Below, piece after piece: positions 1-36,537 of a stretch of 43,082 nucleotides of DNA (positions within the stretch are counted from its first letter, which is position 1; the number at the start of each line of letters is the position of its first letter). The stretch is taken from the IMG/VR virus record IMGVR_UViG_3300031420_000496, positions 69,472 through 112,553 of that record. One strand, 5' to 3'. The DNA is from a virus. Lineage: Duplodnaviria; Heunggongvirae; Uroviricota; Caudoviricetes. Position numbers and translations under genes: made by a program. The notes beneath the pieces are model-generated. The model was not told where the DNA came from. It ran no database searches and saw only the letters and a program-made list of their open reading frames with translations.

Positions 1-169
1 TTCTGTTTGTGATCGTCATCGCCGACGTATTCTGCGTGAATCTTCACGAGACGGTCCAGCGAGTTCTGCACGCGGTCGATGCTTTCCTTGTTGACCACGT
101 GATTGGCTTCGAGCCGTGCCAGCTTCTTGTCAGCCGGTTCGATGCCGAGCAGTTTCATCAGGAACTTTT

Positions 170-382
170 TCATTTGGCCGGTCCAATCGAGATAAAGGTT
201 TTTGGAAATGCTTCGACGTACATCGTGTTGTTGATACGCTTTGTCGGACACCAGCGTTTTGCTGCTGCCTTCACGATGAAGAAAGGCAACAGCTTCCAGA
301 CGAAGGACAGCGGCGTCTTCGGCGACGGGCTGCTGTGATTCTTGCTGGCCCGCCGAACGTAGCGGAAGAGCAAGATGCTCAT
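170..382 (-). CDS. hypothetical basic protein
   Basis: ORF overlaps the stop of the 379..594 gene by 4 nt; no motif recognised. Confidence 0.35.
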   Translation of the reverse strand: MSILLFRYVRRASKNHSSPSPKTPLSFVWKLLPFFIVKAAAKRWCPTKRINNTMYVEAFPKTFISIGPAK

Positions 383-594
383 TCGCAAGCCTCGTAATCG
401 GCCTTGGCGCTCTTGTACTGCTCGGAGTCAGGACCGTAGTCATTGTACGCGTTTTCCATCAGGCAGTCGAGATAGCACTTCTTGCAGTAGCCCTCGTTGA
501 TGTCTGCTTCACCATGGCCAGTGTCACGAGTCAGCTTGCCGCAGAGTTCGCAGTTGTAGGTGCCTTTGTTGTTGATCCGGTTATACTTGGCCAT
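379..594 (-). CDS. small Cys-rich (CxxC...CxxC) early protein
   Basis: CELC and CKKC pairs; GGAG RBS and early promoter directly upstream. Confidence 0.7.
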   Translation of the reverse strand: MAKYNRINNKGTYNCELCGKLTRDTGHGEADINEGYCKKCYLDCLMENAYNDYGPDSEQYKSAKADYEACE

Positions 595-595
595 G

Positions 596-635
596 TTTGA
601 TTCTCCGTAGTTGATGGGTTCATTATACCTGCAAC
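596..635 (-). repeat. 40-bp direct repeat, copy 1 (promoter -10 plus leader and RBS)
   Basis: tttgattctccgtagttgatgggttcattatacctgcaac is identical at 596-635 and 1432-1471. Confidence 0.95.
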
Positions 636-650
636 TGCTAGAAAAGCACA
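622..650 (-). promoter_or_regulatory. early sigma70-like promoter
   Basis: TGTGCT-N17-TATAAT followed by GAACCCATCAACTACGGAG. Confidence 0.8.
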
Positions 651-653
651 GCG

Positions 654-1301
654 TTATGCGATAAAATTAAAGTTGAACGACTGCTGATCGTCGCTAAGCA
701 ACGAAGAAAACATTGTCGCGATAGCTGAGTCGATAAAGCAAATACCAAAATCTGGCACGTCACGCGATTTTACATCAAAGTGAATAATGGACTCGTCTTT
801 CGACACATTATCCAATTTCGTTAATGGAATGGCGAAGCGGAAATTATTATCACCGGTAAAAATCAGTCGCTTATTCGTCATGGTGAAATAGCCCAATTCC
901 ATATCGCTAGAATAGGTTGCTTGCATTCGGCCGCGCGATCCGCCTACGTTAAAGCTGAGACCCTTCACAGGCGTTACACGGACGCCACGGGACCCCGATT
1001 TCCACTGTGCACCAGTCTTTACAGTGCGAAACATTTTTACTGGGGCGTCTACAATGAGCTCTTCATTTTTCATGAGAACAACGCCACGTTGAATCGCTGG
1101 GCCGGGCTGCATTCGGAATGGGGCAGTAGATAATGGGTTCTTCAGCTCGCTGACAAATTCAATATGACGATTGGTCCACAGCGAAGCTTCTGCACTTGAA
1201 GAAGTGCCTTTACTTCCACTTGATTTTCTGGCAAATACAAAATAAAGTATGACTGCCACAATAATAATGGGGAAAAGCGTCGACATCGTCTGCTGGCTCA
1301 T
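654..1301 (-). CDS. membrane-anchored protein with a probable bacterial PH-like domain; AT-rich insert
   Basis: N-terminal TM helix (LFPIIIVAVILYFVF); GYFTMTNKRLIFTG motif; visibly lower GC than neighbours. Confidence 0.6.
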   Translation of the reverse strand: MSQQTMSTLFPIIIVAVILYFVFARKSSGSKGTSSSAEASLWTNRHIEFVSELKNPLSTAPFRMQPGPAIQRGVVLMKNEELIVDAPVKMFRTVKTGAQWKSGSRGVRVTPVKGLSFNVGGSRGRMQATYSSDMELGYFTMTNKRLIFTGDNNFRFAIPLTKLDNVSKDESIIHFDVKSRDVPDFGICFIDSAIATMFSSLLSDDQQSFNFNFIA

Positions 1302-1432
1302 TGTATTTCCTTTCGTTTATAGGGAATTTTAATACGGTTTCCAGGAGGTATCGGATCATCGTCCCCATCATTTCCAACGAGGGCCAATAAAATCAGAACA
1401 ACACAAAAGGCTTTATTATATTTGACAGCCAT
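1298..1432 (-). CDS. 44-aa hydrophobic peptide
   Basis: ATG follows the cassette RBS; stop overlaps the next start. Confidence 0.35.
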   Translation of the reverse strand: MAVKYNKAFCVVLILLALVGNDGDDDPIPPGNRIKIPYKRKEIQ

Positions 1433-1471
1433 TTGATTCTCCGTAGTTGATGGGTTCATTATACCTGCAAC
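1432..1471 (-). repeat. 40-bp direct repeat, copy 2
   Basis: identical to 596-635. Confidence 0.95.
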
Positions 1472-1486
1472 CACGGAGAATGTACA
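1458..1486 (-). promoter_or_regulatory. early sigma70-like promoter
   Basis: TGTACA-N17-TATAAT-GAACCCATC. Confidence 0.8.
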
Positions 1487-1493
1487 GCGTTTA

Positions 1494-2771
1494 TTACTTG
1501 AACTGCTCTTCTTCAGTCGAACCGTGCAGGGCAGTTGTCGAGCTTTGATTCTGCTGGATCGCTTGCGACACTGCATCGAAGTAACCAGTACCGACTTCGC
1601 GCTGGTGCTTGACGGCCGTGAAGCCTTTGTCTGCTGCGGCGAATTCCGCTTCTTGCAGTTCGACGAACGCAGACATCTGACGACGTGCGTAGCCGTGTGC
1701 GAGGTTGAACATGCCGTAGTTCAGCGAGTGGAAACCAGCCAGCGTGATGAATTGGAACTTGTAACCCATCGCGCCGAGTTCTTTCTGGAACTTGGCGATC
1801 GTCGCGTCGTCCAGGTTTTTCTTCCAGTTGAACGATGGAGAGCAGTTGTATGCCAGCATCTTGCCCGGGAATTTCTCGTGGATTGCATCGGCGAACTGCT
1901 TGGCGTACGCCAGGTCAGGCTTGCCGGTTTCACACCAGACCAGATCGGCATACGGTGCGTAAGCGAGACCACGCGAGATTGCTTGTTCGAGACCAGCAGC
2001 AACGCGGAAGAAACCTTCGACGGTACGTTCACCATCGACGAAAGGTCGGTCGTTCGGATCGATGTCGGACGTCAACAGGTCAGCAGCTTCTGCGTCGGTG
2101 CGTGCGATGACCAGCGTCGGAGTTCCCATCACGTCTGCTGCGAGTCGAGCAGCGTTCAGCTTCTCGATGGCTTCGCGAGTCGGCACCAGGACTTTGCCGC
2201 CCATGTGACCGCACTTCTTGACGGATGCCAACTGGTCTTCGAAGTGAACGCCGGATGCACCAGCTTCGATCATCGACTTCATCAGTTCGAAAGCGTTCAG
2301 CACACCACCGAAACCGGCTTCAGCGTCGGCGACGATCGGCGCGAAGAAGTCGATGTCGTTCTTGCCTTCTGCCCATTGAATCTGGTCAGCACGTTGGAAC
2401 GTGTTGTTGATGCGCTTGACGACCATCGGCACCGAGTTCGCTGGATACAGCGATTGGTCCGGATACATTTCGCCAGCGAGATTGGCGTCGCCGGCAACTT
2501 GCCAGCCGGAAAGGTAGATTGCTTTGAGACCAGCTTTGACTTGCTGCATCGCTTGATTGCCGGTCAATGCACCGAGTGCGTTGACGAACGGTTCGTCTTG
2601 CAGAAGCGTCCAGAGTTTTTCTGCGCCACGCTTTGCGAGTGTGTGCTCGATTTGAAGCGAGCCGCGGAGGTTCACGACATCTTCTGCCGTGTAGTTTCGT
2701 TTGATGCCTTGCCAGCGTGGATTGGTTTCCCAATCGTTTTGCAGTTCGGCGATTTGTTGTTCTCGTGACAT
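1494..2771 (-). CDS. aceA: isocitrate lyase
   Basis: catalytic [58 protein letters not shown]; 425 aa, full length; AGGAG RBS. Confidence 0.97.
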
Positions 2772-2800
2772 GGTGATGCTCCTAAGGTGAAAAGAATTCT

Positions 2801-3034
2801 TTAGCAGTACACGTCGATGTAGTGCTGTGTTGGTTCGCGCATCTGTTCACGATACGCCTCAATGGGCGCGATTGCTTTTATTCTTGGTTCTTCAAGACGC
2901 GGATAAGGTAAAACCCGGCTCACTGGCCGGGGCAAATTTGTTCCCATCGCCTGCATCATGAGTGCCATCGTTTCAGGTGGCACAATGCGTGGGAGCGGTG
3001 TCACAGCAACTGCTGTGACTGGGCCGACGTGCAT
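2801..3034 (-). CDS. hypothetical Pro-rich protein
   Basis: start overlaps the upstream stop (TAATG). Confidence 0.45.
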
Positions 3035-3171
3035 TACGATTGCACGGTGATGCAGTACTTGCCGGTGATCAGGCGCGGCTTGGTTACTTCGTAACCTTTC
3101 AGCGTGTACTCTTCAGCTTTGGTGTAAGCCTCGACAATGTCGTCGTACTCGAATTCCATCGTTTGATCCAT
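3034..3171 (-). CDS. small hypothetical protein (MDQTMEFEY...)
   Basis: GGAGAA RBS and TATAAT at 3197-3202. Confidence 0.55.
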   Translation of the reverse strand: MDQTMEFEYDDIVEAYTKAEEYTLKGYEVTKPRLITGKYCITVQS

Positions 3172-3229
3172 GTTGTTCTCCGGTTGTGACAGAGAGATTA
3201 TACCACAATCTCTCCGTCGTTGTTCTTGA

Positions 3230-3907
3230 TTAGCCCAGGTTTGCTTCGGCGATTTCTTCTTCTTCAGCCGGAGCCATGTAGCCGGCGACCGTCGAAGCCA
3301 GCGTAGCCATGTTGTAGTCAGCATTCAGCTTCGGCTTCAGAGCCATCGTGGTCACGATGCGGACGGCCTTGGCGCGGTTGTCGCCGGCAGGCATCTGGAA
3401 CGCTGCGTCGCACAGAGCGTCGTCGACGACTTTCTTCGACACACCTTCTTGCAGGACGAAGAAGTCTTCCGGCACGATTTCTTCAAGTGCTGCCGAAACC
3501 TTGCCCATCAGTTCTTCGTTGCCGGCGTAGGCCGGGTTGATGCCGTACATCTCGGTCGTGATGACTTGTTCGAACGGCTTCAGACCGAGGCTTTCGAGCA
3601 CTTCGACTTCTGCTTCGTTCAGCGCCGAGTTGGTGCCGCGCTTGCGCATTTCAACCGAGCAGCTTGCCTTGCCGTCGATGCCCTTGAACGATTCCGGACG
3701 AACCGAACCGGACATGTTCAGGAACTCGCCGAAGCCGGCTTCCTTGATGTCGCCCTCGAGGGTCTTAGCCGCAGCTTCGAGGCTGGCCATCATGGCCTTC
3801 ATTTCTGCAAGTTTCTGAATGCCCGAGATTGCGATTTCTTGCTTGGTCTTTTTAGCAGCTGCGGTCGGCTTGGCGGTAACTGCTTTGGCTTTAGCGAAGA
3901 GGGTCAT
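3230..3907 (-). CDS. hypothetical early protein (MTLFAKAK...)
   Basis: start follows the promoter-RBS cassette; phage-like codon usage. Confidence 0.7.
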   Translation of the reverse strand: MTLFAKAKAVTAKPTAAAKKTKQEIAISGIQKLAEMKAMMASLEAAAKTLEGDIKEAGFGEFLNMSGSVRPESFKGIDGKASCSVEMRKRGTNSALNEAEVEVLESLGLKPFEQVITTEMYGINPAYAGNEELMGKVSAALEEIVPEDFFVLQEGVSKKVVDDALCDAAFQMPAGDNRAKAVRIVTTMALKPKLNADYNMATLASTVAGYMAPAEEEEIAEANLG

Positions 3908-3940
3908 TTTGTTTGCTCCGTAGTGTTCGTCGATGAGTTC

Positions 3941-3969
3941 ATTATACATGAAACCCAACATGGAGCACA
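3941..3969 (-). promoter_or_regulatory. early promoter
   Basis: TGTGCT-N17-TATAAT-GAACTCATCGAC...CGGAG. Confidence 0.8.
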
Positions 3970-3977
3970 GTACTTTG

Positions 3978-4514
3978 TCAGCCTTTTTTAATCTTTTGCT
4001 GAACTGTTTTCGCGCCGGCAGGTGTTGTCGTTTCTGTGATTTCAGCTTCGACTGGACCATCGCCATCAACAGCATCGATGATTGGCGCCGATTGACGTGC
4101 CGCCAGCATTCGCTTCTCTTCAACCTTCTCAGTTGCTTCGGCCACAGACGTTTCTTTGTAGTTGTACTTTGCAGAGATGAACTTGCTGAAGCCTTCGACC
4201 GACGCCATGAACGCTAGATAGACACCGAAGATTTCAACTGACAACGTGCCCTGCAAACCCGTCTTGATGATGAACCAGGTCGAGGCAATGCCGGCGATGA
4301 ACTGCAGGACTTTCGTCGATGAAACCTTTCGCCCGTCTTTCGTGAACATGTCAGCGAAGTCCAAACGCTGGGACTTTTGGATCGAGTAGAAAGTATAGAA
4401 CAACATGAAGATGAGACCGATAATCAGTACCGACATCAGGTTGAGTTGGTATCCCCAGACGTCGAGGATCATTGCATTGGTAGTTGCGACTGGTGCTGCA
4501 GCAGGGGTAGCCAT
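3978..4514 (-). CDS. multi-pass membrane protein, holin candidate
   Basis: three hydrophobic segments and a charged C-terminal tail; late-type CTAAATA upstream at 4539-4545. Confidence 0.45.
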   Translation of the reverse strand: MATPAAAPVATTNAMILDVWGYQLNLMSVLIIGLIFMLFYTFYSIQKSQRLDFADMFTKDGRKVSSTKVLQFIAGIASTWFIIKTGLQGTLSVEIFGVYLAFMASVEGFSKFISAKYNYKETSVAEATEKVEEKRMLAARQSAPIIDAVDGDGPVEAEITETTTPAGAKTVQQKIKKG

Positions 4515-4557
4515 GTTGGTCTCCTTATGATGATCGGATATTTAGGCCCGGAAATGA

Positions 4558-4581
4558 AAAATCCACCCGAAGGTGGATTTT
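4558..4581. terminator. intrinsic terminator, probably bidirectional
   Basis: AAAATCCACC-cgaa-GGTGGATTTT; cUUCGg loop on the minus strand. Confidence 0.85.
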
Positions 4582-4602
4582 CTTATTTGTCAGCTAATGC
4601 TA

Positions 4603-5463
4603 TTATTTCTGCGTTCTCTGGAGTACGAACGTATCCTTGTGGGATTTTGTAATTCGGTTGTATTCGTATCCAGGCAACTTGAATCGTTTCACGAGTCGAT
4701 CGTACAGCTCTGCTCGATTTGTGTCGGTACCTTTCTTGTCAGCACTAAAAAATATCTTCTCCGGTTTGCGGTCCTCGATGAACTGTTTCAATGCAGCCGA
4801 GACCATGGAGAATACCTCCAGCTCATTGCCACCGCCAGTCTTTCCGAAGTTCATGCCGTTACCCTGGAGGTTCGTCTGCCAGAACACTGCCTCCCATGCG
4901 TCGCCGTCTTTATCATCGTCATCTTTTTCAATCGCGAAGTGGATGATGCGGTCGCCGATCTTTGCTTCGGCACGGAAGTCCTTTCCATTCCTGGTGACTT
5001 CGTAATCGACCTTGCGATTCAGAATCTCGTCAAGCTTTTCGTTTGGCGTGAGGACGAAGATGTCTTTGCTCTTGCCTTGCTGACGTTCGTACTTGTATCC
5101 TGGAATATTGAGCCGCTTCAGGAATTTCTCATACAAGTTCGCCCGCGTAGTTTTGTTCTCAGCTTCGAACTTCAACTCCGCAGGCTTGTGCTTTTGAATG
5201 AGGTGTAACACAGCGTCCTTCATGACGGAGAACACTTTGAGTTCTCCACCTGCGCCGGTCAAATCGTAGTTCATGGCGTACGTCTTTTTGTCCAGCTGCC
5301 AGAAATCCATGAACCACTTGTTGCCGCGTTTCTTGTCAGCCTGAAACTGAATAGTTCTACCAGCGATGTCGGCACTGAAGAAGTAAGTTGACTTGCTGTC
5401 TTCATGCACCTTGACATCAACTTTACTATCCAGTACTTCGTTTAGAATTTCATGAACTTTCAT
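4603..5463 (-). CDS. protein with two tandem homologous domains, possibly virion cargo
   Basis: two ~140-aa repeats (TG.G.EL.VFS...KP....F.A......RA.LY.....R...PGY.Y...K.KD.FVL). Confidence 0.75.
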   Translation of the reverse strand: MKVHEILNEVLDSKVDVKVHEDSKSTYFFSADIAGRTIQFQADKKRGNKWFMDFWQLDKKTYAMNYDLTGAGGELKVFSVMKDAVLHLIQKHKPAELKFEAENKTTRANLYEKFLKRLNIPGYKYERQQGKSKDIFVLTPNEKLDEILNRKVDYEVTRNGKDFRAEAKIGDRIIHFAIEKDDDDKDGDAWEAVFWQTNLQGNGMNFGKTGGGNELEVFSMVSAALKQFIEDRKPEKIFFSADKKGTDTNRAELYDRLVKRFKLPGYEYNRITKSHKDTFVLQRTQK

Positions 5464-5464
5464 T

Positions 5465-5950
5465 TCAGCCTTTGTCTTTTGGGATGACGGAAAACTTTCC
5501 ATCACTTTCGTATCTGACATATTTAACGTCAGTAACGTTTTCGATCCCGGCTTTTCGAATCTCGGCTTCAATATCTTCTTGCGAGATGTTTTCTTTTCTC
5601 ATGACGCGCCTACAGTATTCACCATGCTTGACGACTAGCACTGCAGACGGTTCGGATAGTTTCTCCATCCATTTCCAACGCATCGATCCCCAGTCAAGAA
5701 ACCAACTCCAGAAGAACAACGTGCCCACAACGATAAAAGCCGACGTGATACTTTTGTATTCGTCGGCCATACCATTTTGGGCACCGTCAGCTACGAGCAC
5801 CAGGAGCAATACGTCTGCAGGGCCGACTTCGCCAACGTTCCTCCGCATGATGAATCGCAACGTGAGGAAGATGAACCACCACATGAAGCTAACCCGAAGG
5901 AATAGCTCAAGTGGCGATTTGTCGAAGGCGAATATTTCGGCCCAGTTCAT
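5465..5950 (-). CDS. DUF421/YetF-like membrane protein
   Basis: three TM segments, then IRKAGIENVTDVKYVRYESDGKFSVI. Confidence 0.8.
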   Translation of the reverse strand: MNWAEIFAFDKSPLELFLRVSFMWWFIFLTLRFIMRRNVGEVGPADVLLLVLVADGAQNGMADEYKSITSAFIVVGTLFFWSWFLDWGSMRWKWMEKLSEPSAVLVVKHGEYCRRVMRKENISQEDIEAEIRKAGIENVTDVKYVRYESDGKFSVIPKDKG

Positions 5951-6171
5951 TATGCTGCCAGCATTTGTTTCAGCTCAGTGTATCCGCCGATGACCTGCCC
6001 GTCTTTCAGAATCTGCGGCATGGTGCGAGCCGTTGGAATCTTCGCGAGCAGTTCTTCGCGGCTGATGTCCGCGCCGAGCTTGAGGGTTTGGAATGGAAGA
6101 CCTTTCTGTTGCAAAAGGTTCTTGGCTTGATCGCAGTATGTGCAATTGTCTTTTGTGTAGAGCGTGAACAT
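5950..6171 (-). CDS. grx: glutaredoxin
   Basis: CTYC active site, TMPQI, IGGYTEL; adjacent to nrdB. Confidence 0.92.
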   Translation of the reverse strand: MFTLYTKDNCTYCDQAKNLLQQKGLPFQTLKLGADISREELLAKIPTARTMPQILKDGQVIGGYTELKQMLAA

Positions 6172-6179
6172 GATTTCCT

Positions 6180-7304
6180 TTATGCGAGGTCAGGCAGTTC
6201 TTCGTAGTTGATGGAAGCGGTCATCGAACCAATGACGTATGCAACGCTTTCATTCTCTTGAAGAGCAGTCTGCTTTTTGTTGGTGTTGAAGTGCTTGTTG
6301 AACCATGGCAGCGGAGCTGTTTTGATTTTGGTATTGTGCTTCATACCAATTTCGCCCAGACGAATCCCTGCAGTATAATCGACGTGGTCGCACATGATCT
6401 TTTCGTTCATGCCGATCATCGGTCCTTCTTTGAATAGGTATTTAGCCCAGTTCTTTTCTTCGTCGATGACGGCGAGCAAAGCGTCTGCGGCTTCTTGACG
6501 GCATTCAAATGCTACCTCGCGGAAACGCGGATCGACCTTGATAACCTGGTTGATGATGTACGCGGTCCACTTGGTGTGCAGGGTTTCATCTTGCAGAATA
6601 AGCGAGATGATGTTACCCGAACCCATGAAGATGCGATTTTCGACCATGCCAAGGGAGGTGGCAAATGATACCATGAAACGGATTGCTTCGAGACCATAAG
6701 ACGCGATGAGCGCCATGTACACGGCCTTGATATAATCGTGCTCCGACACATACAGCCACTTCTTCATTTCGCTGTCAGTGCAGGTGTCGTACAATGCGCG
6801 CTTGCTATTCAGCAAGTGCAGGTGATTGTAATACTTGTCGATGCCACTGGCCATCGTCGTGATTTCGTCAATACCGTGAATGGCGTTGAACTGTTCGACT
6901 GGCACGTTGTAAATGTTCTTGATGATGTGGCTGTACGACTCGCTGTGAATCTGCTCGAATGCAGACCACCACAGAACCAAACCTTCGAGTTCAGGCACTG
7001 AAGAAACAGGCGTGAAGATTTGAACTGGCGAACGACCCTGGATCGAGTCCAGCATTGTCTGTCGCAGCAGGTTCGACGTGTAGATGTGTCGTGTCGACTT
7101 CGATGCTTCTTTGAAATCGATCTGGTCTTTCATCAGCGTGATTTCGTTTGGAGTCCAGAACGAACCCTTCTGCGTGGCGAGGAACTGTGCCAGCTTCGGA
7201 AACGCGTACTCTTCATAACGCTGGATTGTCACTGGACCAGCAGGGTCCAGGAACATTTGTCGATTCGAGTAATCGGGAATTTTGCTATAGTCTAGTTGGC
7301 TCAT
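6180..7304 (-). CDS. nrdB: ribonucleotide reductase class Ia beta subunit
   Basis: FWTPNEI, LDSIQGR, EQIHSESY (radical Tyr), EAIRF, DETLH. Confidence 0.95.
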   Translation of the reverse strand: MSQLDYSKIPDYSNRQMFLDPAGPVTIQRYEEYAFPKLAQFLATQKGSFWTPNEITLMKDQIDFKEASKSTRHIYTSNLLRQTMLDSIQGRSPVQIFTPVSSVPELEGLVLWWSAFEQIHSESYSHIIKNIYNVPVEQFNAIHGIDEITTMASGIDKYYNHLHLLNSKRALYDTCTDSEMKKWLYVSEHDYIKAVYMALIASYGLEAIRFMVSFATSLGMVENRIFMGSGNIISLILQDETLHTKWTAYIINQVIKVDPRFREVAFECRQEAADALLAVIDEEKNWAKYLFKEGPMIGMNEKIMCDHVDYTAGIRLGEIGMKHNTKIKTAPLPWFNKHFNTNKKQTALQENESVAYVIGSMTASINYEELPDLA

Positions 7305-7486
7305 TCAAACGCCTTAAAAATGTATGTTGTTCCATCTACCGCGTAAACGGCTCTTTCATTGTCGAGCATCTTTGGCACATACCTTGGTGGGCCGAAGCCC
7401 ACCGTAGTATCTACGTAATCGATGTCCCGTGATTGCACTTTGCCGTCAACCACTACGTCCATCGTATAGTGGTTCACAGAACGCAA
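7301..7486 (-). CDS. small hypothetical protein between nrdA and nrdB
   Basis: overlaps both neighbours. Confidence 0.5.
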   Translation of the reverse strand: MRSVNHYTMDVVVDGKVQSRDIDYVDTTVGFGPPRYVPKMLDNERAVYAVDGTTYIFKAFE

Positions 7487-9846
7487 GCCTCGCAGTATTC
7501 TTCTTCCTCAACCGAGGTTTCTTCTTGGTCGAACTTGACCGGCACATCTTCAAGAGCTGCAAGGGCTTCTGCGTTCAGTGCATCGAGCAGAGCTTGCTTG
7601 TCAACCAAGTTGTAGTAGTGCGACTTGAATCCCCAGTGATGACACAGCATCAGGTTACGTGCGACCAGTGTTGCTGGAATCTTGTATTCCGGGAAGAACT
7701 TTGGCGAGTAGAACGTGTCGCTCGAAATACCTTGGTCCGTGTAAACTTGCATGACCGCAACTGTCTTCAGATACTCGATGCAGTCTGGTTGATCCCACAG
7801 CAGCTGGTAATGGTTCTTCAGCTTCTTGTACTCTGGAACAACTTGCGCGAAGTCACCAGCTTTCGAACCCTTGATAACGATCAGGTCCTTGACCATCGAG
7901 ATGCCGTTCGTCGAGTTGATGACGACAGACGATGATTCAACTGGAGGCAGAGCGATGTTGGTCGCATTGCGAACACCATACGTCTTCATGCGAACACGCA
8001 GGCTTTCCCAGTCAAGGTCAGGGCTCGGAGTGAAGTCGGTCAGATCATTCACACCAGGCGCACGACGTTCGTGGGTGAACACGCCACGACCAGGCCATGT
8101 GTTGTCGGACTCCAGGCACTTGCCTTTTTCTTGCGCCAGATCAACAGTTCCTTCGGTTGCATAGAACGACATGTGTTCCATCCAACGTTTCACTTCAGCC
8201 AGTGCTTCTGGTTCACCGTACTTCAGCTTGCGCTTCGCGTGCCAGTAAGCCAGGTTTGTAACACCGATGCCGAGTGGTTCGAATTCCTTGTTGTGCAGTT
8301 CTGACTGGATCGTCAGGAAGTCTTGATACTGCAGCAGGTTGTGGAGCATGCGCTGAAGAATACGAAGCGGGCGACGCATTTCTTCTGGGTGGCGGAATGC
8401 ACCGTAGTTGATCGAACCCAACGTGCAGAGTGCGATACGACCGTTCGTGTCATCGACCGTTTGGAACGGACGAGTGTGCTGCATGATTTCCTGGCACAGG
8501 TTCGACTGGTACACTGGGTGCAGCAGCGAATCGAACGGACCCTGACGTTGAATGTTGTCAACGTTCAGAATGTAGATGCGGCCAACGTCGCCACGCTCTT
8601 TCAGCAGCATGTCTTTGAAGACGGTTTCTGCTGGCAGAGTCTTCACGCGGAGACCCATTGCAACGGCACCCTTCTCGTACTTGACGTACAGCTTTTCGAA
8701 TTCGGCGATGTCGCGGTAGTACGCTTCGTACATGTCCGGCACTTCGTTCGGATCGAAGAATGTGATGTTGCCCTGTGCTTTGAAACGCTTCCAGAAGAAC
8801 GAGCACATTGCGACGGAGTAGTCCATGTGACGAACACGGTTCTCTTCGGTACCCTGGTTGTTCTTCAAGACGATCAGGTCTTCGAACTGATAGTGCCAGA
8901 TTGGGTAGGTCACCGTGCAAGCTGCATTGCGGATACCACCGGCCGAGCACGAGCGCAGGTCAGCGAACCATTTCTTCAGGAACGGAATGTAACCGGTGTG
9001 CTTGATTTCGCCGTTACGGATCGGAGCACCGAGCGGACGGAGGCGCCCAACTTCCAGACCGATACCTGCTTTCTTCGATGCATAGTCAGCGAGCACTTGA
9101 CCCGATGCGAAGATCGATTTCAGTGTATCATCGGACTTGATGAGCACGCAAGACGAGAACTGTTTCGTCTTCGTTCCAAGACCAGCGAGCACAGGCGTTG
9201 CCAGAGTGAACTGTCCATCCGATGCCGAAGCATAGAATTCCTTGACGTACTTCAGGCGATCTTTCTTCTCTGCATGGAACGCGGTAGCAGCTGCCACCAT
9301 GTAACGAATCTGCGGAGTCTCAACGATTTCACCGGTCACACGGTTCTGCACCAGATATTTTTCGCACAGCTGGTCAACTGCTGCGTATGGAAGTGCCTCG
9401 TCCTTTTCGTGGTCGATTGCACGTTCCAACATATCCCATTCTGCTTCGGTGTACCAGGCCAACAGGTCAGGCGTGTACAATTTCTTTTCGACGTTCGCTT
9501 TCACGATGTCGTAAAGACGCGGCACTTCGTACTGTCCGTAAACCTCTTTGCGCAGCATGGTGATGCGCTGCTTACCAGCAACATACTGGTAGTTGACGTT
9601 GCCCACGTCTGGACGTTCGATTTCGTCGATCAGGTCGACCATCGAACGAAGAGCAATCTCGTCGAGACGCTTTGTGGTCATGCCATCGTGAAACTGAGCA
9701 CGAGCATTCATCTCGATCATCGATGGTGAAACGTCAGCTACGCCTTCACATACCTTTGCAATCTGTGATTGCCATTTAGCAAGGTCCCAAGCGACCTTGC
9801 TACCGTCGCGTTTAACGACGAAGTTAATTTCTGAGTTCTTTTCCAT
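7474..9846 (-). CDS. nrdA: ribonucleotide reductase class Ia alpha subunit with ATP cone
   Basis: VVKRDG ATP cone, SSCVL, QSNLCQEI, LCTLGS, C-terminal CEAC. Confidence 0.96.
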   Translation of the reverse strand: MEKNSEINFVVKRDGSKVAWDLAKWQSQIAKVCEGVADVSPSMIEMNARAQFHDGMTTKRLDEIALRSMVDLIDEIERPDVGNVNYQYVAGKQRITMLRKEVYGQYEVPRLYDIVKANVEKKLYTPDLLAWYTEAEWDMLERAIDHEKDEALPYAAVDQLCEKYLVQNRVTGEIVETPQIRYMVAAATAFHAEKKDRLKYVKEFYASASDGQFTLATPVLAGLGTKTKQFSSCVLIKSDDTLKSIFASGQVLADYASKKAGIGLEVGRLRPLGAPIRNGEIKHTGYIPFLKKWFADLRSCSAGGIRNAACTVTYPIWHYQFEDLIVLKNNQGTEENRVRHMDYSVAMCSFFWKRFKAQGNITFFDPNEVPDMYEAYYRDIAEFEKLYVKYEKGAVAMGLRVKTLPAETVFKDMLLKERGDVGRIYILNVDNIQRQGPFDSLLHPVYQSNLCQEIMQHTRPFQTVDDTNGRIALCTLGSINYGAFRHPEEMRRPLRILQRMLHNLLQYQDFLTIQSELHNKEFEPLGIGVTNLAYWHAKRKLKYGEPEALAEVKRWMEHMSFYATEGTVDLAQEKGKCLESDNTWPGRGVFTHERRAPGVNDLTDFTPSPDLDWESLRVRMKTYGVRNATNIALPPVESSSVVINSTNGISMVKDLIVIKGSKAGDFAQVVPEYKKLKNHYQLLWDQPDCIEYLKTVAVMQVYTDQGISSDTFYSPKFFPEYKIPATLVARNLMLCHHWGFKSHYYNLVDKQALLDALNAEALAALEDVPVKFDQEETSVEEEEYCEACVL

Positions 9847-22857: not shown

Positions 22858-23271
22858 TTATTTGGTTTCGATTGTTGCCGACCATTTGCCATACAGATCA
22901 CCAGCGGCACGCAAGACTTGCAGCAGATCATCGCTCAGATGGCGAGCTGCCAGCGTGTCGATCGGTGTCAGCATGAACGTGTTGCACGGCTCGAGAATCT
23001 TGAGCACGGTGTCGATCTGCCGCCACGTGGCGGAAACAGTCGGAACGAAGCCTGCGGCGATGTCTTCTTCAGTCGGCGGATACTTCTCGTACGACTGCAG
23101 AATGTTCCGCCACGATGTGAGGAAGTTTCGGTTGTCGGATTGGTATGCTTCGCCGGATGCTTCGCGGCAGACAGCATCGTAATGCTGTGCGGAAACCTTG
23201 CGGATCATTTCGACATCTGCAATCGTCAGCGGCAGAAGGAATTCAGGTTGGCCTTGGATGCGTACTTTCAT
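22858..23271 (-). CDS. hypothetical protein
   Basis: GGAG RBS; overlap with the upstream gene. Confidence 0.6.
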   Translation of the reverse strand: MKVRIQGQPEFLLPLTIADVEMIRKVSAQHYDAVCREASGEAYQSDNRNFLTSWRNILQSYEKYPPTEEDIAAGFVPTVSATWRQIDTVLKILEPCNTFMLTPIDTLAARHLSDDLLQVLRAAGDLYGKWSATIETK

Positions 23272-23525
23272 TTGCGGCTCGCTCCAGCACGATGGGCTTT
23301 CGACCATTGATACGGGTCACCGTTGGGAAGTTTGCCTTCTTCAACTGCACCGCCTTTGTCGTTGTTGCCGACTTGGCCATCGAGTTGAGTTGACATGCAG
23401 ACATGCTTGGAGCCCGAGGCGCGGAGACTTTGACAATATGCCAAAGCCTCCATCAACTCAGCGTCTGTGAAGTGTGTTGCATCGGGCGAACCGTCAGCAA
23501 AGAGGGAGAATACTACGATACTCAT
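23268..23525 (-). CDS. small hypothetical protein
   Basis: AAGGA RBS. Confidence 0.6.
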   Translation of the reverse strand: MSIVVFSLFADGSPDATHFTDAELMEALAYCQSLRASGSKHVCMSTQLDGQVGNNDKGGAVEEGKLPNGDPYQWSKAHRAGASRK

Positions 23526-36483: not shown

Positions 36484-36512
36484 TGTGCAATACCCGCAAA
36501 CGCGGGTATAAT
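36484..36512 (+). promoter_or_regulatory. early promoter, third near-identical cassette
   Basis: TGTGCA-N17-TATAAT-GAACCCATCAACTACGGAGAAT; spacer contains the hairpin TACCCGC-aaac-GCGGGTA. Confidence 0.85.
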
Positions 36513-36537
36513 GAACCCATCAACTACGGAGAATGAC

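Follow-up and report, generated by a model that had tools for sequence, protein, structure and literature searches.

An isocitrate lyase gene of probable Oxalobacteraceae origin in a variable island of an uncultivated T4-like jumbo phage

Organisation of the locus

The window (the whole stretch of DNA that was analysed, 43,082 nucleotides) forms the last 43 kb of an IMG/VR virus record of 112,553 bp, which is labelled 'provirus' and has a CheckV completeness of 31%. Close to the start of the window, on the minus strand, lies a gene for an isocitrate lyase (ICL) of the AceA type (Table 1). All genes called around it are placed on the same strand and most of them are ORFans, while two match PHROG families of unknown function, so that the flanking phage small genes described in the first-pass annotation of this DNA were found again. 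Phage genes of the window include those for the large and small subunits of ribonucleotide reductase (RNR), a UvsW-like helicase, a UvsX-like recombinase, the large terminase (TerL), the tail sheath and the tail tube. Thirty tRNA genes were predicted by ARAGORN in the 112,553-bp record. One of them, at record 23253-23328, which is 46 kb before the window start, has the anticodon CTA and could read the amber stop codon; the other tRNA genes are clustered at record 4-16 kb.

Table 1. Features at and around the isocitrate lyase gene (window coordinates)
Feature	Position	Strand	Remarks
ICL gene, AceA type	1494..2771	-	425 aa, ATG start, TAA TAA double stop
Leader with ribosome-binding site	2772..2785	-	AGGAG at 2783-2779; kept from the donor aceA
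77-aa ORFan, immediately upstream (29 nt from ICL start)	2801..3034	-	without Pfam or PHROG match
45-aa ORFan, TAATG stop/start overlap with 77-aa ORF	3034..3171	-	gene call
44-aa ORFan, downstream of ICL gene	1298..1432	-	gene call
215-aa ORFan, N-terminal hydrophobic segment, downstream of ICL gene	654..1301	-	no Pfam or PHROG match
Extended -10-like element TGgTATAAT	3197..3205	-	read from sequence, aligned with cassettes; putative promoter element
Sigma-70-like promoter cassette, directly 3' of ICL gene	1436..1486	-	TGTACA, 17 nt, TATAAT, conserved leader with ribosome-binding site; 10/12 consensus matches
Second cassette variant, before 243-aa upstream gene	3937..3975	-	aligned with other cassettes
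Palindrome AAAGAATTCTTT, 12 nt, 5' edge of captured segment	2791..2802	.	single copy; overlaps TAA stop of upstream ORF
Part of variable island, ~10.1 kb, ~24 called genes	1..5950	-	tblastn synteny
Conserved phage core beside island	5950..9846	-	glutaredoxin 5950-6171, RNR small subunit 6180-7304, RNR large subunit 7474-9846

Promoter-like cassettes recur through the window. They consist of CTGTGCA or TGTACA, 17 nt, (G)GTATAATGAAC and then a conserved leader with a ribosome-binding site, and up to ~35 identical bases are common to the copies. The motif TATAATGAAC, allowing at most one mismatch, was observed 7 times in the window against 1.55 expected, and none of 100 shuffles yielded 7 or more; the phage promoter cassettes which had been proposed from inspection of the letters are therefore upheld, one of them lying 3' of the ICL gene and others at 3946-3937 and 627-618. 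Near-identical copies are located at 618-627, 1454-1463 and 36507-36516, and copies of the second variant at 3937-3946, 21788 and 37461. The cassette directly 3' of the ICL gene, as a putative promoter, would drive the genes which come after it. Scanning of the window revealed no cassette directly before the ICL gene itself, and the nearest promoter-like site upstream is the TGgTATAAT element preceding the 45-aa and 77-aa ORFs that lead into it, the 45-aa ORFan being likely the first gene of the ICL transcription unit. The resemblance of the cassettes to sigma-70 promoters suggests that the host polymerase would transcribe early from them; the T4 late-promoter motif TATAAATA was not found in the window.

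Two hairpins are found in the same region. Inside the 77-aa ORF a terminator-like hairpin (window 2931-2914, minus strand) comprises six G-C pairs followed by TTTTACC, with 140 nt between it and the ICL start downstream. Transcripts reading into the ICL gene could be attenuated there; alternatively, this 77-aa ORF may be no true gene. Further upstream, at window 4558-4581, a strong palindromic hairpin of 10 pairs, with T tracts on either strand, separates a 286-aa and a 178-aa gene; it is likely a bidirectional terminator which delimits the transcription units lying upstream of ICL. The perfect palindrome pointed out earlier just upstream of the ribosome-binding site does exist at that place, but a role as a signal was rejected, since it occurs in a single copy, overlaps a stop codon and stays at chance level (AAAGAATTCTTT, allowing no more than one mismatch, is matched once or more in 15 of 100 shuffles).

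Identity and integrity of the isocitrate lyase

The 425-aa protein matches the Pfam ICL family (PF00463) at 2e-107. With the NCBIfam equivalog NF011645 / PRK15063 it scores 833.6 bits over residues 2-424, the cut-off being 562, and with TIGR01346 it scores 635 bits against a cut-off of 276. The models of methylisocitrate lyase PrpB, TIGR02317 and NF008455, give 100 and 84 bits respectively, and identity as PrpB was rejected because their cut-offs (354 and 353) are not reached. Solved ICL structures align with the phage protein from end to end, the best being 3i4e from Burkholderia pseudomallei, followed by 1igw (E. coli AceA) and 1f61 (M. tuberculosis), and the phage ICL is ~87% identical to a solved structure. 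The catalytic loop KKCGH with the active-site cysteine occupies residues 185-189, and the remaining family motifs, ITLAG among them, are all present, with the substrate- and Mg-binding motifs conserved. When aligned with 92 bacterial ICLs, the phage protein keeps every one of the 203 invariant columns and 249 of the 251 near-invariant ones (at least 95% conserved). Four residues (N12, D246, A258 and S402) are absent from all 92 aligned bacterial ICLs, and none of them falls in a catalytic motif. The C-terminus lies one residue past QF, where E. coli AceA ends, and the C-terminal lid is intact. It follows from the equivalog scores, the motifs, the kept columns and the PrpB models below cut-off that the protein is confirmed, at the level of its sequence, as an intact AceA-type ICL (EC 4.1.3.1), in line with the full-length AceA bearing KKCGH that had been recognised at first sight; the encoded enzyme is probably catalytically active, cleaving isocitrate to succinate and glyoxylate.

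Two peculiarities of the protein were considered and set aside. The gap of five residues in comparison to the Burkholderia structure 3i4e was rejected as a phage-specific deletion, the short loop being normal in Oxalobacteraceae and in most Burkholderiales. In place of the last 6-7 codons of the Oxalobacteraceae genes the phage gene has a single Lys codon, and this short C-terminus was likewise rejected as a functionally worrying phage truncation. Short ICL tails can be regarded as natural, because E. coli AceA stops at the same QF and a bacterial relative (P0007), located in an ordinary chromosomal context, has an equally short tail.

Residence of the gene in a jumbo phage genome

An assembly chimera or host contamination, that is a bacterial aceA fused with phage sequence or a prophage bordered by host DNA, could be suspected from the provirus label and the low completeness of the record, and from a protein which is 92% identical to a bacterial one. 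Several observations speak against it. The same ICL protein is encoded, among the same neighbours, on three separate contigs, which measure 0.2-1 Mb and include the ENA contig k141_1209711 (ERZ27247433) of 375,421 bp. The gene is situated 71 kb and 40 kb from the two ends of the record, phage core genes lie on both sides of it, and it is away from any contig edge or host flank. Its GC content (0.556) is phage-like, and its GC3 of 0.643 lies within the phage range (mean 0.568, sd 0.08, z 0.94), whereas in Massilia and Duganella aceA GC3 amounts to 0.77-0.87. Nucleotide similarity to bacterial aceA is confined to the stretch from ~12-24 nt before the ATG (window 2783-2795) to codon 424, so that it stops within ~25 nt of the coding sequence. 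Pfam and PHROG matching of the flanking genes detected no bacterial housekeeping genes beside the ICL gene; in contrast, the close bacterial ICL gene P0007 has its true bacterial context among ClpB, MoaE, an MFS transporter and RsmJ. A completeness of 31% at 112 kb implies a genome of ~360 kb, in agreement with the 375-kb contig, and the whole contig can thus be taken as the phage genome. In the 9 kb past the left edge of the record the gene packing goes on unaltered and equally dense; most of the genes there are unknown, and almost all share a single strand. The chimera or contamination reading is hence largely refuted and effectively excluded, with hardly any probability left to it, and the earlier opinion that host contamination was unlikely has been substantiated by the three agreeing contigs, the phage-like GC3 and the confinement of bacterial similarity to the gene.

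The carrier of the ICL gene is an uncultivated T4-like jumbo phage of ~375 kb, and both the 'provirus' label of IMG/VR and the limits set at 112 kb have the appearance of an artefact. At its right edge the record cuts off the last ORF of the window.

Origin of the gene

Among 5.8 billion proteins the best match of the phage ICL is that of Massilia sp. TS11, which is 92% identical without gaps, and the next matches (88-91%) belong to Massilia, Pseudoduganella, Duganella, Rugamonas and Janthinobacterium. In a tree of 157 sequences the phage ICL is nested in the Oxalobacteraceae clade with an SH-aLRT of 99, and the same nesting was recovered in a more careful tree of 80 sequences (ultrafast bootstrap 92 / SH-aLRT 99); in both trees the placement is resolved to the level of this clade and not within it. 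These results support an Oxalobacteraceae bacterium of the Massilia/Duganella group as the putative donor, and the Burkholderiales-type AceA suggested in the first-pass annotation is thereby narrowed to one family by database matches and trees alike. The donor was probably the host of the phage or a relative of the host, and Oxalobacteraceae may be taken as a reasonable pointer to the host, resting on one gene. A second host-like gene, coding for a DUF421/YetF-type membrane protein (window 5465-5950, minus strand) and adjoining the glutaredoxin gene, carried no bacterial signal in the set of 5.8 billion proteins, where only five phage-like relatives of 41-70% identity were found. One of these DUF421 relatives is located on a 350-kb contig.

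The phage gene and the nearest bacterial genes are ~80% identical in nucleotides and 87-92% in protein, with dN of 0.067-0.10 and dS above 1.1, which is saturated. In these pairwise comparisons with bacterial aceA strong purifying selection is apparent over the whole phage and bacterial path, whose shares are not separable. The gene may in truth have come from a species of medium GC content that has not yet been sampled. The leader before the ATG reads TTAGGAGCATCACC in the phage and TTAGGAGAACACC or ATAGGAGAACACC in Massilia and Duganella aceA, that of Massilia frigida being TTAGGAGAACACC; the ribosome-binding leader of the donor was retained by the phage.

A variable island and lineage-specific capture

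The island in which the ICL gene resides is bounded by the dCMP deaminase gene, 4.2 kb to the left of the window, and by the gene for glutaredoxin. ICL is absent from five IMG/VR relatives with TerL identity of 55-77%, the syntenic region being covered in four of them. These four keep the dCMP deaminase gene, a split DnaE piece and the clamp-loader genes on one side and glutaredoxin on the other, and the RNR genes beside glutaredoxin were matched in two of the four (G001 and G002). The interval between deaminase and glutaredoxin measures 4.4-9.8 kb in the four relatives as compared with 10.1 kb here. None of the queried island ORFs has a homologue in any of the four syntenic relatives by tblastn, and no bacterial housekeeping family was detected by Pfam and PHROG among ten of the larger island genes. 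Because the relatives keep the flanks and have neither the ICL gene nor the queried island ORFs, the gene is viewed as accessory and its site as a hot spot where genes turn over, and by this synteny it appears to be a lineage-specific capture into the variable island.

Three more distant huge phages with ICL (TerL 42-45% identical, 315-337 kb, 91-100% complete) have enzymes which fall into an exclusively viral clade of 25 sequences, supported by an SH-aLRT of 99. The AU test rejects the joining of the present ICL to this 25-sequence clade (delta lnL 68.6, p 0.001), although the test is weakened by the choice of this group, made once the tree was known. From the separate clades and the AU test it follows that ICL has been acquired more than once by different jumbo-phage lineages.

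Two further observations concern the relatives and other phage groups. The TerL match spans ~2.2-2.3 kb instead of 1.5 kb in several relatives (L164, L168, L169, L173, L174, L175, L177, L180), and in one complete 337-kb phage TerL is split into two ORFs ~950 bp apart (G007:C1:332647-335081), which suggests an intron, intein or homing-endonuclease insertion in the TerL of the relatives and not in that of this phage. On many low-GC viral contigs of IMG/VR (loci L007, L010-L013, L015-L017, L023, L024, L028, L031 and L076) an ICL gene follows, after ~1-2 kb, a gene whose product is distantly homologous (20-26% identity) to the RNR small subunit of this phage. This may point to ICL being paired repeatedly with a di-iron protein in another group of phages.

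Comparison with known isocitrate lyases

ICL genes of phages were described from ocean viromes in 2013 (PMC4053976). Subsequently, an aceBA operon was noted in the complete 179-kb T4-like viral genome TARA_ERS478052_N000008 (Nishimura et al. 2017, PMC5332604), and in 2025 ICL was reported in 98 huge phages of the Huge Phage Genome Collection, of which 76 have no malate synthase gene (bioRxiv 10.1101/2025.02.27.640493). Our own search of IMG/VR yielded 100 ICL-encoding stretches. A near-identity DNA search of the phage collection gave no match, and a literature search found no assay of a phage ICL. The initial view of ICL as an uncommon and possibly novel phage auxiliary gene therefore does not hold in the light of these three reports and the IMG/VR stretches; phage ICL is already known and the present gene is a further example, not a discovery.

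With the ICLs of the Huge Phage Genome Collection the present gene shares an intact AceA-type enzyme encoded in a phage genome above 200 kb, and also the lack of malate synthase which characterises most of them, none having been found here in the 112 kb searched. It differs in that it nests in the Oxalobacteraceae clade, with 92% identity to Massilia, and not in a virus-only clade. A single phage lineage seems to have captured it separately. TARA_ERS478052_N000008 is likewise a T4-related phage with a glyoxylate-shunt enzyme as an auxiliary gene, but there aceB and aceA form an operon, while here aceA stands alone in 112 kb without an operon partner. With bacterial AceA (3i4e, 1igw, Massilia sp. 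TS11) the phage enzyme agrees in family, length class, catalytic loop and every invariant residue, whereas the surroundings of its gene, composed of ORFans and phage promoter cassettes, are different. Phage C48C1 (OQ984149.1, Kyanoviridae, 156 kb) offers a complete deposited genome with an ICL homologue among replication genes; this homologue is, however, 58.7% identical, annotated as 'hypothetical protein' and carried by a member of another phage family.

Proposed function and alternative explanations

The observations are probably best explained by a working ICL, captured from Oxalobacteraceae by a ~375-kb T4-like jumbo phage, which feeds the glyoxylate shunt by way of the malate synthase of the host. 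According to this explanation, an ICL gene from Oxalobacteraceae would have landed in the fast-turnover island between the dCMP deaminase and the glutaredoxin-RNR genes. Host RNA polymerase would transcribe it early, outside the regulation of host aceA and despite any host shut-off. The phage enzyme would then split isocitrate into succinate and glyoxylate, and host malate synthase would condense glyoxylate with acetyl-CoA to malate. In this way carbon derived from C2 units (acetate, fatty acids, storage polymer) could reach oxaloacetate and aspartate, and from there the precursors of nucleotides and amino acids, rather than escape as CO2 during the replication of a very large phage genome. 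Such a supply of carbon for dNTP and amino-acid synthesis is plausible, as a matter of inference, and the shunt role accords with the nearby genes for RNR, glutaredoxin and dCMP deaminase. Against this explanation it can be held that the absence of ICL in the closest relatives together with the variable island also fits a transient passenger gene, and that there is no cassette directly before the ICL gene, with the terminator-like hairpin standing upstream of its start.

A shunt operated jointly with the host can be set against two other readings of the same locus. A working ICL might be used outside the shunt, without malate synthase, for instance as a 2-methylisocitrate lyase detoxifying propionate, as a source of glyoxylate for glycine and purines, or as a supplier of succinate to respiration, with less NADH and less oxidative stress. 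M. tuberculosis ICL1, a member of the same family, also cleaves 2-methylisocitrate. Neither malate synthase (PF01274) nor the AceK kinase/phosphatase (PF06315) was found in the 112,553-bp record of this ~375-kb genome, which extends to the whole record the absence of malate synthase first remarked for the window. Malate synthase was likewise not found in four ICL-bearing huge phages that are near-complete (91-100%), most phages of this kind being alike in this respect, and the ICL gene is near to genes of nucleotide metabolism. Nevertheless, such a use is judged unlikely: malate synthase is encoded in five of five Oxalobacteraceae genomes, and because the likely host family possesses it the classical route is available; moreover, the PrpB models score far below their cut-offs, and the residues unseen in bacterial ICLs are just the four listed above, outside the catalytic motifs.

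Alternatively, the gene could be a passenger that entered through illegitimate recombination and persists, without a selected benefit, in an island of high turnover. The four relatives with conserved flanks and without ICL, the queried island ORFs lacking homologues in them, the want of a bacterial housekeeping family among ten of the larger island genes and the missing dedicated promoter all speak for this reading. It is nonetheless quite improbable that the gene is idle, as no invariant residue has been lost (0 of 203) despite ~20% nucleotide divergence from every sampled bacterial gene, GC3 lies within the phage range and the capture is trimmed to the coding sequence and its ribosome-binding site. 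Furthermore, many huge-phage lineages possess ICL, spread over several clades of viruses only, and this speaks for an advantage that recurs.

A bolder proposal goes beyond both the host-assisted shunt and its alternatives. ICL of huge phages without malate synthase, the present phage among them, might be a stand-alone switch, directing isocitrate to glyoxylate (for glycine and purines) and to succinate with a lower NADH and oxidative load; the 92% near-host sequence could even allow co-assembly with the host tetramer, and, separately, the gene might be the first single-gene host pointer of this T4-like jumbo-phage lineage to Oxalobacteraceae. It is put forward as a speculation with a small chance of being right.

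Significance

The ICL gene of this phage opens no new question on phage metabolism. It is a clean and well-bounded addition to what is already known, namely that ICL has been taken time and again by huge phages from their hosts, usually without malate synthase. What is distinctive here is the very close tie to one bacterial family, combined with a sharply delimited, lineage-specific capture. Through the tie to Oxalobacteraceae, the host of this uncultivated jumbo phage becomes the subject of a hypothesis that can be tested. The limits of the capture can be drawn almost to the base, the ribosome-binding site of the donor being kept, the tail codons lost and the site empty in the relatives, and for this reason the locus makes a good natural case for dating and modelling the entry of metabolic genes into phages.
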